The notes beneath the pieces are model-generated. The model saw only the letters and a program-made list of their open reading frames with translations, did no database searches and was not told the DNA's origin. 64,000 nucleotides of DNA. It comes from Escherichia coli. Its GTDB lineage: Bacteria > Pseudomonadota > Gammaproteobacteria > Enterobacterales > Enterobacteriaceae. Position numbers and translations under genes: made by a program. The stretch lies in assembly GCF_041886205.1 (NCBI RefSeq), contig NZ_CP169029.1. One strand, given 5' to 3'. This document shows positions 18,939-22,683 of the stretch, one piece after another (the stretch's first letter is position 1; the number at the start of each line of letters is the position of its first letter).

Positions 18939-20354
18939 CTACATATCCCGTGTGGTTTGTGGATTCACTGAGTTTTGTTTGTCAGATAATGCACAATCGT
19001 TATCCAGAATTTTTGCAGACATATTTCGTTCTACCAAGAGCCGGCAAATCTCTGCGTGCTTCTCCTCAGTGAAGGTGAAGAGAGACATAAAGGCTATTCG
19101 GATCAGTGAGCCTATTGCAGGTAGCAGACAAATCCCGAAGAACAGACCCGATAGCACGCTTTCTTTCTGGATTTGTTCTTGCGGCACGTAGTCAATCATC
19201 GTCAGGAATACACCTATGAGCCCGCCGCCAACTGCAACCGACATCTTGCCGGTAAAGGTTTGTCCGGAGAAGGTGATTGCCGCGCATCGTTTGTGGGTGT
19301 GATACTCCGCGTACTCAATGGTGTCAGCAATCATTGACGAGGTGAGAATGTTGGTCATCATCACAAAAAGCGTACTTAGACCAAGTAGAATAAACAGTAT
19401 TGTCACCTGTTGATATCCAACCACCCACATCACCAAGCGTACCGAGACGTCTAGTCCACAGAGGATCATAAACAGCTTCCGCTTCTGCATCCGGCGTGTC
19501 AGCATCGGCGAGATCAGGCATAACATTGCTGCTAAAATCCCCATAACACCAATAGCCATCTGCAGGCTGCCATCTCCCAGATTATTGATAAAGAAGTAGA
19601 TATAAAGCCCGCCTGCCACGTTGTGGAATACGCAGAAAAAGAACGACAGCAAAACTATAAATAGCGGCTTGTTTTGACGCAGGTTATAGAAGGTGTCGCG
19701 AATAGTTACCTTTTCCGGGCTTGGCGGCACGCGCTCTTTGATCTGTACAAAGCCGTTTAGCATCAGTGGCAGGCCTACTAGCATCATTATCAGCGCAGCC
19801 ATAAAGTAACCCTTATCGTCGCTGTACTGGGCGAAGAATGCCGCTAGTTTTGGGAAAAAGATATTGGCGCAGGCAATCCCGACGTTTACCCCGAGCATCG
19901 CCGCCGTGACAACACGGACACGCTGAGCGGAGTCATTGGTCATCACCGATGACATCGACCAGAACGGGATATCGGAGATAGCATATAGCGTCCCCCATAG
20001 AATGTAGGTTACCCCGGCATAGAGAATTTTTGTGGTCATGCTCGCATCGATTTTATAGAAAGAAAGCAGCGTGACACCTGTGATCAACAGTGGAGCGATC
20101 AGTAAAAAGTGACGAAATTTACCGAACCGACTGTTAATAATATCCATAATGCTAGCAAAAAGAGGATCGTGAACTGCATCCCATGCGCGGGCGATCAGAA
20201 AAATTGTGCTTGCCGCCAGCGCCGAGATCCCCAGCACGTCAGTGTAAAAATAGTTAATAAACGAACCCACTAAGCCAAAGCTAAAACACTGACCTACCCC
20301 ATAACCAAAATAAGACCACAACTCACGAGACGGTATTTTCATTGTCGTTATCAT
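18939..20354 (-). CDS. Glycoside-pentoside-hexuronide (GPH, MelB-like) cation symporter, 471 aa
   Basis: About 12 predicted TM segments; GPH-type motif region ...[16 protein letters not shown]...; co-oriented immediately downstream of a glycoside hydrolase gene. Confidence 0.8.
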
Positions 20355-20404
20355 TGATATATACCTGCTTGATCACCCGGCGGCAGAGCACCGGGTCGAT
20401 ATTA

Positions 20405-21490
20405 TTAGTAGTGCACCTTCGGGGCGATCTTGCGTAACTGCAAAATCAGGTCGATTTCACGGCGTGAGAAAGGAAAACCATTCTCCTCAAACACGTCGTG
20501 GAACCAGAGACGACAGTAGTCCGTGGAATTTTTCATCACCACAGGCCAGGGTAACCACGTCTGGGTTTTGCCGCGTACCAGTCCCCACTGATATGGAGCA
20601 ACTTTTGCCATGTACATTAGTGGAAGCTGTTCTTCAACAGTACTCCCCAAGTGTCGTGCAAGCCATTCGGTGCAAAACAGCGGGCGATCCAGTGCCTGTA
20701 GCTGCTGGATAATTGCCACCATACGGCTGGTGTGAGTGTATGCGTGGAAGCTCACCACGTCTGAAAGCGACAGCGCTGTCTGGTCAAGTGGATGCTGGAA
20801 GAATATCTCGTCTTCTTCCGGTGACAGATGCCATGCGCAGACAGTGAGCGGCTGAGTCGGATCTTCTTCACGTACCCATCGAAACGCCAGGTTCATTAGC
20901 TCGTGGGCGCAACTTTCCAGCTTTGCATCATATTGAACCTCCTGCGTACCTGTCGCGAAAATGCCGCGGTTACCAGGTTCGTTATATAGATCCCACAACA
21001 ATACGCGCTGGTCTTCACGAAACTGACTAACAATATCGCGGATATAGAGTTCAATCTGCGGCCAAAAATCGCGATCGCAGACTTTATCACGTCCAGGACT
21101 TGCTGCCGCCTGGCTATTGTGTTTGCCCGGTACAGGAGATTTTTGCGGGCCGAGATAGGGTTCGTCACCGGAGAAGCCACAGTCATCCATCAGGGTCAAC
21201 ATGGTGCTAAACCCGTGACCGGCAGCAATCGCCAAAAAATGGTCAATGCGGGCTATCAGCCCGTCGCGGTCGTGCTCCCAGACGATAAAAGGCAGATTGA
21301 TGCGAAGAGTGTTATAGCCCGCGGCCGCTGCCCAGCCTAGCTCACGCTCGATGGTTACCGCATCAAATGTTTCCTCTTGCCAGATATCAGTCCAGTTCAC
21401 CGCCGTCGACGGCAGATAGTTAAAACCGCACAGCCAGCCTTTTTGTTCATACCATGTTTGTGCCTGCTCTCTACTCCACTGCTCTTTCAT
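20405..21490 (-). CDS. Cytoplasmic clan GH-A (TIM-barrel) glycoside hydrolase, family uncertain (GH5/GH113/GH53-like), 361 aa
   Basis: No signal peptide; candidate catalytic acid motif LWDLYNEPGN and candidate nucleophile in LFCTEW about 95 residues later; forms an apparent operon with the GPH transporter. Confidence 0.65.
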   Translation of the reverse strand: MKEQWSREQAQTWYEQKGWLCGFNYLPSTAVNWTDIWQEETFDAVTIERELGWAAAAGYNTLRINLPFIVWEHDRDGLIARIDHFLAIAAGHGFSTMLTLMDDCGFSGDEPYLGPQKSPVPGKHNSQAAASPGRDKVCDRDFWPQIELYIRDIVSQFREDQRVLLWDLYNEPGNRGIFATGTQEVQYDAKLESCAHELMNLAFRWVREEDPTQPLTVCAWHLSPEEDEIFFQHPLDQTALSLSDVVSFHAYTHTSRMVAIIQQLQALDRPLFCTEWLARHLGSTVEEQLPLMYMAKVAPYQWGLVRGKTQTWLPWPVVMKNSTDYCRLWFHDVFEENGFPFSRREIDLILQLRKIAPKVHY

Positions 21491-21515
21491 TACCAGTCCT
21501 CTAGATAATAATGTT

Positions 21516-21539
21516 TAGCTAATAAATATTAGCTAAAAA
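21516..21539. promoter_or_regulatory. Perfect palindrome TTTAGCTAAT-AAAT-ATTAGCTAAA, candidate operator in the hydrolase promoter
   Basis: 10-bp arms, 4-bp spacer, no mismatches; 26 bp upstream of the hydrolase start codon and in the region shared with the divergent LacI-family gene. Confidence 0.45.
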
Positions 21540-21675
21540 GTAAATGCACAAATGATTCTGTTAATAAAAGAGACTCCCCTCACAAAGCTCATGCATCGAT
21601 GAATCAGAAACGTGAGCGATCGCCCGAAAGCGTGCGGTTAGGGTATGATGTGAAATCGCAAGAGGGGGAAAACGG

Positions 21676-22683
21676 ATGAAGCGAAAAACGAAAGTTACGA
21701 TGAACGATATTGCTCGAGTGGCAGGGGTATCGCAGGCAACGGTATCACTGGTAATTAATCAGTCCCGCAACATCAAGCTTAGTGACGACACGCGCCAGCG
21801 GGTTATTAACGTGGCCACCGAGCTCGGCTACGACCGCCTCCCCGCCATTCACGCCCCGCGCAACCAGGAGGAGATCGCCCTGCTGGTAAGCTCACTGCAA
21901 ATCTTCGACCCGTTTATTGACGCAATTAGCCAGGCGCGAGAATCTGCGTGGCGCAACGAAACCTTACTCACTATCTACGACTATGGTGATGACATCGAGT
22001 TGGCACTGAACATCATCCGTCAGTTGGAAACGCGTAACTGTATCGGGATTATTCTCGCTTCCCCTGTCACTACGCTGGTTGACATGAGTGCATTCCTGGA
22101 CTTCACTCACATACCTCTGGTGCTTCTCAACCAGTGCGACCCCGGCTCGCCGCTTCTGCCATCGTTTATTCCAGACGACTACGCTAATGCTTTCCAGGTA
22201 ACCAAACATCTCATCTCCTGCGGCGCAAAGCGTATCGCACACATCACCGGAGAGAGTTGGATGGAGGCCTCTCGACAGCGTTTGGCGGGCTATCAGGCAG
22301 CGCTGCAACAGGCTGGATTAGCCTGCGATGATAGCCTGGTGCGCCAAACCAACTGGCAATTCAGCGAGTCCTTCACTGCAACCACTTCTCTGCTGGAGCT
22401 AACCGAGCGGCCGGACGCCATTTTCTGTGCCAGCGATTGGCTGGCGATAGGCTGTTATCAGGCTTTGGCTGTAAACGGTATTCGTATACCACAGGATATG
22501 CTGCTGGCGGGTTATGATGATCAGAAGATATCCGAACAACTCACTCCACCACTGACCAGTATCCAGCTACCCTATAGCGAACTGGGACGGCTGGCAGTGG
22601 AGTACCTTTGCAATCAGGAAGACGCTGCCACACATGTAACACTGGCAGGCAGGCTAAAAGTGCGGGCTTCGAGTCTTTTCTGA
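21676..22683 (+). CDS. LacI/GalR-family transcriptional regulator (335 aa)
   Basis: N-terminal HTH MNDIARVAGVSQATVSLVINQ, periplasmic-binding-protein-like effector domain; divergent from the hydrolase-transporter operon. Confidence 0.85.
   Translation: MKRKTKVTMNDIARVAGVSQATVSLVINQSRNIKLSDDTRQRVINVATELGYDRLPAIHAPRNQEEIALLVSSLQIFDPFIDAISQARESAWRNETLLTIYDYGDDIELALNIIRQLETRNCIGIILASPVTTLVDMSAFLDFTHIPLVLLNQCDPGSPLLPSFIPDDYANAFQVTKHLISCGAKRIAHITGESWMEASRQRLAGYQAALQQAGLACDDSLVRQTNWQFSESFTATTSLLELTERPDAIFCASDWLAIGCYQALAVNGIRIPQDMLLAGYDDQKISEQLTPPLTSIQLPYSELGRLAVEYLCNQEDAATHVTLAGRLKVRASSLF

Follow-up and report, generated by a model that had tools for sequence, protein, structure and literature searches.

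A predicted LacI-repressed uptake-and-cleave operon, probably for small furanosides, in a rare accessory island of Escherichia coli

Introduction

Several bacterial operons, including melAB, lacS-lacZ, xylP-xylQ and yicJ-yicI, combine a carrier of the GPH family with a cytoplasmic glycosidase. In melAB-type systems a GPH symporter brings in the intact glycoside, the cytoplasmic enzyme cleaves it, and a sugar-responsive regulator completes the unit. To our knowledge, no furanoside-specific GPH carrier has been described. Here we analyze a three-gene module at positions 18939-22683 of a 64,000-nucleotide stretch (the window) of the Escherichia coli contig NZ_CP169029.1 (assembly GCF_041886205.1). 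The module follows the melAB logic, but it differs in the family of its hydrolase (GH5_13) and in its predicted substrate, probably a small furanoside. An earlier note on this DNA, made without database searches, had recognized an uptake-and-cleave unit and left the family of the hydrolase undecided.

Galactofuranose (Galf) is common in fungal, protozoal and bacterial surface glycans and absent from mammals; mammalian hosts neither make nor degrade it. E. coli imports the free monosaccharide through the ABC transporter YtfQRT-YjfF, a core-genome system with no associated hydrolase; the module would likewise handle an unusual sugar form, but as glycosides.

One of three characterized enzymes of subfamily GH5_13 is GlfH1 (Rv3096) of Mycobacterium tuberculosis, an exo-β-D-galactofuranosidase that trims the galactan of arabinogalactan (PMC10115798, PMC11627007). 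In 2012 the subfamily had no characterized member and was placed between mannan-acting subfamilies in the GH5 tree (PMC3526467). The other two, assigned in the literature to the same subfamily as GlfH1, are Bacteroides ovatus ZP_02065960.1, active on p-nitrophenyl (pNP)-β-D-Galf, and Niabella aurantiaca WP_018627464.1, active on pNP-α-L-arabinofuranoside (pNP-α-L-Araf) (PMC6442616). All GH5_13 enzymes that we found described as characterized act on galactofuranosyl or arabinofuranosyl substrates. Rv3096 has also been paired as an orthologue with a GH5-domain protein of Yersinia pseudotuberculosis (PMC7033130).

Results and discussion

Architecture of the module

The module contains three open reading frames (ORFs) in two divergent transcriptional directions. 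The 361-aa hydrolase is encoded on the minus strand at 20405-21490. Second in the same operon, and starting 50 nt past the hydrolase stop codon, is the gene for a 471-aa glycoside:cation symporter of the GPH family (TC 2.A.2; 18939-20354, minus strand). A 335-aa LacI-family transcriptional regulator is encoded divergently on the plus strand (21676-22683), and the control region at 21491-21675 separates it from the hydrolase operon. All three ORFs coincide exactly with the genes described in the earlier note, and RefSeq has the same three coding sequences in six E. coli genomes, where they are labeled ‘MFS transporter’, ‘cellulase family glycosylhydrolase’ (WP_000664239.1) and ‘LacI family DNA-binding transcriptional regulator’. 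Each structural element of the proposed uptake-and-cleave unit, a GPH symporter, a leaderless clan GH-A hydrolase and a divergent LacI-type regulator, was verified. A literature search on the accession WP_000664239.1 found no paper.

Fold, active site and location of the hydrolase

Standard family models recognize the hydrolase poorly. Pfam GH5 (PF00150) is the sole significant family, with a weak match (E=6.3e-7), and there is no NCBIfam match. Whether the query was the protein by itself or a profile of 26 sequences, PDB sequences gave at best E ~1e-3, to GH10 and GH5 fragments. With so weak a Pfam match, no NCBIfam model and no close solved relative, the earlier difficulty in assigning the enzyme to one family was real.

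Enzymes of GH5 share a residue set consisting of Arg on β2, His after β3, Asn-Glu on β4, His and Tyr on β6, Glu on β7 and Trp on β8. In an alignment of 26 homologues (52-84% identity) the segments N170-E171-P172 and T274-E275-W276 are invariant, together with R63, H124, H249, Y251 and W302. The whole GH5 set is thereby present, H124 being equated with the β3 His by position only. An AlphaFold2 model built from this alignment (pLDDT 88.9, pTM 0.91) has a (β/α)8 barrel in which the NEP motif follows strand β4 (163-167) and the TEW motif lies at the end of strand β7 (271-276), the ‘4/7’ arrangement of clan GH-A. As modeled, the hydrolase is a retaining glycosidase of this clan, with E171 as the predicted acid/base and E275 as the predicted nucleophile. 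The same two glutamates had been proposed earlier as acid and nucleophile; because they are invariant in the alignment and sit at the correct strand ends of the model, both assignments are correct, and the pair is conserved out to mycobacteria.

Foldseek searches of the PDB returned clan GH-A structures with TM-scores of 0.45-0.63 and 9-16% identity, with no close relative among them. The top structural matches are GH5 exo-β-mannosidases and Man-β-1,4-GlcNAc hydrolases (11-17% identity), with Z-scores declining smoothly from 26 to 20. Of the three affiliations suggested previously, GH5-, GH113- or GH53-like, the first stands, in the form of the GlfH1/GH5_13 lineage discussed below; the other two fall away, since GH113 and GH53 descriptions were absent among the structural matches listed and similarity to these families was not found.

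The N-terminus contains no hydrophobic segment (maximum 9-residue Kyte-Doolittle hydropathy of 0.71 over the first 45 residues) and coincides with the start of the mature part of a mycobacterial homologue exported by the twin-arginine (Tat) route. These two observations place the enzyme in the cytoplasm, consistent with the absence of a signal peptide reported before.

Relationship to GlfH1

Full-length comparison connects the hydrolase to GlfH1. The E. coli protein aligns with a 379-aa M. tuberculosis protein at 38% identity over 352 residues, with E=3e-78 and 8 gap positions. This protein is Rv3096: PMC8006519 prints a 35-residue peptide of Rv3096, residues 134-168, and the protein has exactly this sequence at the same positions. 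A M. interjectum protein annotated as ‘1,4-β-xylanase’, which carries a twin-arginine leader, is 39% identical to the E. coli hydrolase over the full length (E=3e-83). The M. tuberculosis protein was reached, with 651 member sequences, by a search from the M. angelicum copy; it was not among the 80 loci of a genome-collection scan with the M. interjectum protein. A check of these loci for synteny with lipY (GDSAG) had no hits and was uninformative.

The E. coli hydrolase and the mycobacterial clade share about 110 invariant positions, among them N170-E171, H249, Y251, W302, K308-T311 and the motifs HNS, WDLxNEP, QPLT and GKTQT. The nucleophile Glu, part of a CTE motif in the mycobacterial sequences, is kept in all of them but one single-strain allele. 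Two findings had been named in the earlier note as fatal to its proposal, a non-glycosidase family and loss of the catalytic glutamates in close homologues; the family proves to be one of glycosidases, and among all homologues examined the glutamate pair is kept with that single exception. Given the direct full-length match to Rv3096, we assign the hydrolase, by sequence similarity to GlfH1, to the GlfH1/GH5_13 lineage.

The two proteins share full-length homology, the catalytic Glu pair and the NEP, HNS, QPLT and GKTQT motifs, but their settings differ. GlfH1 has a twin-arginine leader and works outside the cytoplasm on the arabinogalactan of its own cell; its gene adjoins the MarR-type regulator gene mxyR, and no transporter partner has been described. 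The E. coli protein, in contrast, is leaderless and is paired with an importer and a LacI-type repressor. Our literature searches turned up no cytoplasmic, transporter-coupled version of GH5_13, and by sequence the module’s enzyme would be a new member of the lineage of this kind.

The family is large, with at least 1,793 relatives in a word-indexed search and 2,868 representatives at 50% clustering. It is labeled almost everywhere as ‘1,4-β-xylanase’ or ‘cellulase family’, and the ‘xylanase’ label is attached to Rv3096 as well; the assignment proposed here would correct a misleading label on many of these homologues. In the AlphaFold database (AFDB50), Foldseek found a family with TM-scores of 0.84-0.97 that includes proteins of Yersinia (51% identity), Vibrio, Aeromonas and Mycobacterium (37-38%), along with many Bacteroidota and Planctomycetota proteins fused to GH43. 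The Bacteroidota relatives (TM-scores 0.84-0.89) are often longer or multidomain, unlike the E. coli hydrolase.

Several separate observations concern this family. The M. tuberculosis GlfH1/Rv3096 allele WP_031685343.1 has Lys at the position equivalent to E275 (CTKYLAR versus CTEYLAR), whereas the other M. tuberculosis-complex sequences examined have Glu; it may represent a natural catalytic-null variant of GlfH1. Two GlfH1-type paralogues occur on separate contigs in many slow-growing Mycobacterium species, for example M. interjectum, M. alsense, M. kyorinense and M. celatum. The AlphaFold database lists the pea aphid Acyrthosiphon pisum as the source of entry A0A8R2FDL3, which shares 83% identity with the E. 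coli hydrolase; most likely, bacterial contamination or a symbiont contributed this DNA to the aphid assembly. A functional-metagenomics paper on a ‘novel β-galactosidase’ was considered and found to be unrelated to the hydrolase, as it concerns a GH-J-like propeller.

Transporter and regulator

The symporter scores above the cut-off of the NCBIfam GPH model (TIGR00792 ‘gph’; 308 bits against 231, E=8.6e-92) and matches Pfam MFS_2 with E=2e-60, which establishes its membership of the GPH family. It stays below the equivalog cut-offs for MelB (211 versus 456 bits), glucuronide (210 versus 528 bits) and YagG (201 versus 610 bits) carriers. Thus it shares the family of the melAB-type carriers but is no equivalog of MelB, UidB or YagG.

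The regulator has the two-part composition of the LacI/GalR family, an N-terminal LacI-type helix-turn-helix (PF00356, E=6e-14) and a sugar domain resembling periplasmic binding proteins (Peripla_BP_3, PF13377, E=1e-30; Peripla_BP_1, PF00532, E=1e-24). Its scores fall below all NCBIfam equivalog cut-offs.

Control region and putative operator

Operators of the LacI/GalR family are palindromic, measure some 16-22 bp, lie close to the promoter that they regulate and typically have CG at the center. The control region of the module contains a perfect 11-2-11 palindrome, TTTAGCTAATA-AA-TATTAGCTAAA, at 21514-21537, located 24-47 nt upstream of the hydrolase start codon. The palindrome had been noticed before; its position lies 2 nt to the left of the 21516-21539 given at that time. 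Its core, TTAGCTAA-N6-TTAGCTAA, spans 21515-21536, and only 0.01 matches are expected in the window.

Seven loci from six genera have the motif at a distance of 20-45 nt upstream of the hydrolase start, mostly as the perfect 20-mer TTAGCTAATA|TATTAGCTAA. In E. coli and Klebsiella 2 bp are inserted at its center, and one of the Klebsiella arms is degenerate. When the E. coli, Klebsiella and Vibrio control regions are aligned, the palindrome and CTCACGTT are the conserved blocks and the remaining DNA has diverged. This strong comparative evidence makes the palindrome a likely operator, presumably for the adjacent LacI-family protein.

A degenerate third box, CTAGATAA, is present at 21501-21508, 14 bp from the first TTAGCTAA box, which makes three boxes, spaced 14 bp apart, between the hydrolase start and the palindrome. 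We discarded a CRP-like site at 21569-21584 as being at chance level (24 matches against 28 expected). Another palindrome of this type, ATAGCTAATGATTTTTAGCTAT, is present at 28238-28259 in AT-rich non-coding DNA upstream of a fimbrial remnant, again with 0.01 expected per window. Since about 4,870 E. coli genomes without the regulator share the backbone DNA to which it belongs, we rejected it as a second operator; it probably serves another protein.

Conservation across genera

The order LacI-hydrolase-GPH recurs well beyond E. coli. It is found at another chromosomal site in Klebsiella, where the hydrolase, carrier and regulator are 79%, 85% and 80% identical to the E. coli proteins, and in Vibrio aestuarianus (56%, 54% and 38%), where genes for a GH36 enzyme, an MFS carrier and a porin come next. 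Two Photobacterium species have it, as does a second E. coli type that is 56% identical; in Pantoea it adjoins a phage integrase. Francisella has a GPH-hydrolase pair (hydrolase 55%, carrier 45%) with no LacI gene. Hydrolase and carrier co-vary in sequence across Enterobacterales, Vibrionaceae and Francisella, as partners inherited together would be expected to do.

Between E. coli and Klebsiella, the ratio of non-synonymous to synonymous substitution rates (dN/dS) of the carrier gene is 0.06. The hydrolase and regulator genes have dN values of 0.14-0.16, and their dS is saturated. By this measure all three genes are under purifying selection.

Homologues of the hydrolase are also found in other settings. 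In Buttiauxella (locus L097, 1-10392) one is part of an ABC sugar-uptake operon with two permeases, a MalK-like ATPase and a solute-binding protein; the insertion lies between ppa and ytfP and directly adjoins ytfQRT-yjfF. In Trabulsiella (L007, 1952-9068) and Nissabacter (L012, 1898-9059), a LacI gene, four genes for Gfo/Idh/MocA oxidoreductases and a GPH carrier gene precede a homologue that is ~60% identical; this carrier is 22-25% identical to that of E. coli and the LacI protein is unrelated. The Trabulsiella Gfo/Idh/MocA proteins are possibly those counted as GH109 in a Trabulsiella genome paper. The arrangement suggests a different, possibly oxidative, glycoside pathway with the same hydrolase.

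Substrate and proposed mechanism

The module is a real but fairly ordinary nutrient-use operon, and furanose sugars made by microbes and plants are its most likely target. Since the characterized relatives of the hydrolase are furanosidases, the best-supported substrate class is that of β-D-galactofuranosides or α-L-arabinofuranosides. We consider it probable that the module is a LacI-repressed uptake-and-cleave operon for small furanosides, with β-D-galactofuranosides as the most likely substrate and α-L-arabinofuranosides as the alternative; the substrate, the inducer, repression and co-transcription are what we infer here. The GPH symporter would import, with a cation, an intact glycoside that ends in a β-D-galactofuranosyl (most likely) or α-L-arabinofuranosyl residue. 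The 361-aa GH5 enzyme would then cleave it in the cytoplasm by retaining double displacement, using E171 as acid/base and E275 as nucleophile, and the freed furanose would ring-open to galactose (or arabinose) and join core metabolism. When the substrate is absent, the LacI-family repressor would occupy the palindrome upstream of the hydrolase start and keep the hydrolase-transporter operon off.

Several hints favor galactose, and these are suggestive only. In Photobacterium rosenbergii a full galE-galT-galK-galM operon, recognized by equivalog scores, adjoins the module. The GH36 enzyme of the Vibrio operon also hints at galactose, as do the Buttiauxella neighbors of the hydrolase homologue (YtfQ with 625 bits against a cut-off of 510, YtfR with 864 against 850) and the fusions to aldose/galactose-1-epimerase in distant relatives.

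Several observations weigh against this proposal, either as a whole or in its choice of galactose. In the second Photobacterium species 6 kb of unrelated genes lie between the module and the gal genes; we have down-weighted the P. rosenbergii adjacency for this reason and regard it as a single lineage-level event. The adjacency in Buttiauxella may be a coincidence of the insertion site. The only NCBIfam match of the Vibrio GH36 enzyme is a β-L-arabinopyranosidase model, far below its cut-off. Distant relatives of the hydrolase are fused to GH43 (6 of 45) or to GH51-type C-terminal domains (2 of 45), which are typical of arabinan or arabinoxylan debranching and point to arabinose-containing plant glycans. 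GH5_13 holds both galactofuranosidases and an arabinofuranosidase, either activity fits the data presented here, and the furanosidase activity of the enterobacterial members is itself predicted from sequence. The Citrobacter homologue is a solitary gene, and the E. coli island contains no sugar-catabolic partner genes. As to control, the palindrome has TA or TATT at its center in place of the CG typical of LacI-family sites, and a consensus σ70 scan scored no promoter or terminator in the control region or past the carrier gene.

A more specific proposal, which we put forward tentatively, is a dedicated galactofuranoside salvage route in Enterobacterales and Vibrionaceae that consists of a furanoside-specific GPH carrier and a cytoplasmic GH5_13 galactofuranosidase. 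If it exists, fungal, protozoal and bacterial glycans, O-antigen galactans among them, would offer gut and environmental bacteria Galf-terminated fragments as food, and the route would complement the uptake of free galactofuranose by YtfQRT-YjfF. If the family assignment holds, a widely mobile three-gene cassette would provide enteric and marine Proteobacteria with a way to consume furanosides.

The closest competitor keeps the same architecture and takes plant α-L-arabinofuranosides (arabinobiose, short arabino-oligosaccharides or arabinofuranosyl glycosides) as the physiological substrate. The enzyme would then be mainly an α-L-arabinofuranosidase, and the arabinose would pass to araBAD. The two sugars, β-D-Galf and α-L-Araf, differ only by the C6 hydroxymethyl group, and the Niabella GH5_13 enzyme acts on pNP-α-L-Araf (PMC6442616). 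The GH43 and GH51-type fusions and the Vibrio GH36 match fit such a substrate, and Shewanella has been documented to take up L-arabinose as the furanose (PMC10191376). However, the fusions occur in distant, secreted, multidomain relatives (35-48% identity) outside the cytoplasmic clade. The closest characterized relative by direct comparison is Galf-specific, and a review states that GlfH1 is inactive on arabinofuranosyl residues (PMC12290620). Furthermore, ara genes are absent near the proteobacterial loci examined, while gal genes and ytfQRT occur there. We regard arabinofuranosides as the main physiological substrate as unlikely, and rank them second to β-D-galactofuranosides.

Pyranosides, the class to which the working idea of the earlier note leads, come third. 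On that account the enzyme would be a cytoplasmic β-pyranosidase of the β-mannosidase, β-xylosidase or β-galactosidase type, and its imported substrate a β-linked disaccharide, for example mannobiose or xylobiose. Characterized GPH carriers mostly move pyranosides, and the nearest NCBIfam models of our carrier are those of MelB, glucuronide and YagG-type transporters. The best structural matches of the hydrolase are mannosidases and Man-β-1,4-GlcNAc hydrolases, and many family members are publicly annotated as ‘1,4-β-xylanase’. Those structural matches are remote, though, and are expected because GH5_13 sits among mannan-acting GH5 subfamilies (PMC3526467); the similarity to the furanosidase GlfH1 is far stronger, and the ‘xylanase’ label extends to Rv3096, a demonstrated galactofuranosidase. 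A pyranosidase function is improbable. As the characterized relatives act on β-D-Galf or α-L-Araf, the test sugars suggested before (mannobiose, galactobiose, xylobiose and aryl-β-glycosides) are probably of the wrong class.

The accessory island and its distribution

The module lies in a 10.8-kb accessory island (17135-27983) that also contains an autotransporter remnant, an IS3 fragment and tcuRABC; these are context and lie outside the operon. In a blastn comparison with an island-free E. coli locus, backbone homology ends at 17134, just past hipA, and resumes at 27984 in a yneL-like helix-turn-helix pseudogene. These junctions, together with the IS3 fragment at ~18625-18879, agree with the earlier description of an IS-scarred segment between hipA and yneL that K-12 lacks.

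The island was found in 6 of 5,426 complete E. coli genomes, with 99.8-100% identity and all three ORFs intact. The hosts of the six carriers were pig, human, frog, bear and guinea fowl. There was no copy of the module on PLSDB plasmids, and the nearest proteins from outside E. coli, in Enterobacter and Silvania, are 84-89% identical. Being so rare, the cassette has a small ecological reach in this species, where it is an accessory trait that travels with tricarballylate utilization. One could read the module as a decaying or non-functional passenger that a mosaic island carries without any present role: it is rare, it is flanked in a scarred region by the IS3 fragment and a truncated autotransporter, and the consensus scan scored no promoter or terminator. 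This reading is very improbable given three intact and nearly identical ORFs in six genomes, intact catalytic residues, strong purifying selection on the carrier gene (with dN ~0.15 and saturated dS for the other two) and a perfectly preserved operator motif.

The neighboring genes are of some interest in their own right. A complete tricarballylate operon at 22792-27695 (tcuR, tcuA, tcuB and an MFS carrier resembling tcuC) is confined to the same 6 of 5,426 genomes. On the other side of the module, a 560-aa ORF at 17233-18915 looks chimeric, with an N-terminus resembling an IS3 transposase and a C-terminus made of autotransporter passenger and β-barrel sequence. In RefSeq the ORF is annotated as two pieces, an IS3 fragment and a truncated autotransporter. 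The ORF marks the left, scarred part of the island. Upstream of hipBA, at 9799-15219, a 1,806-aa autotransporter of the ECSE_1600 family is intact in the window and is annotated as frameshifted in the island-free locus.

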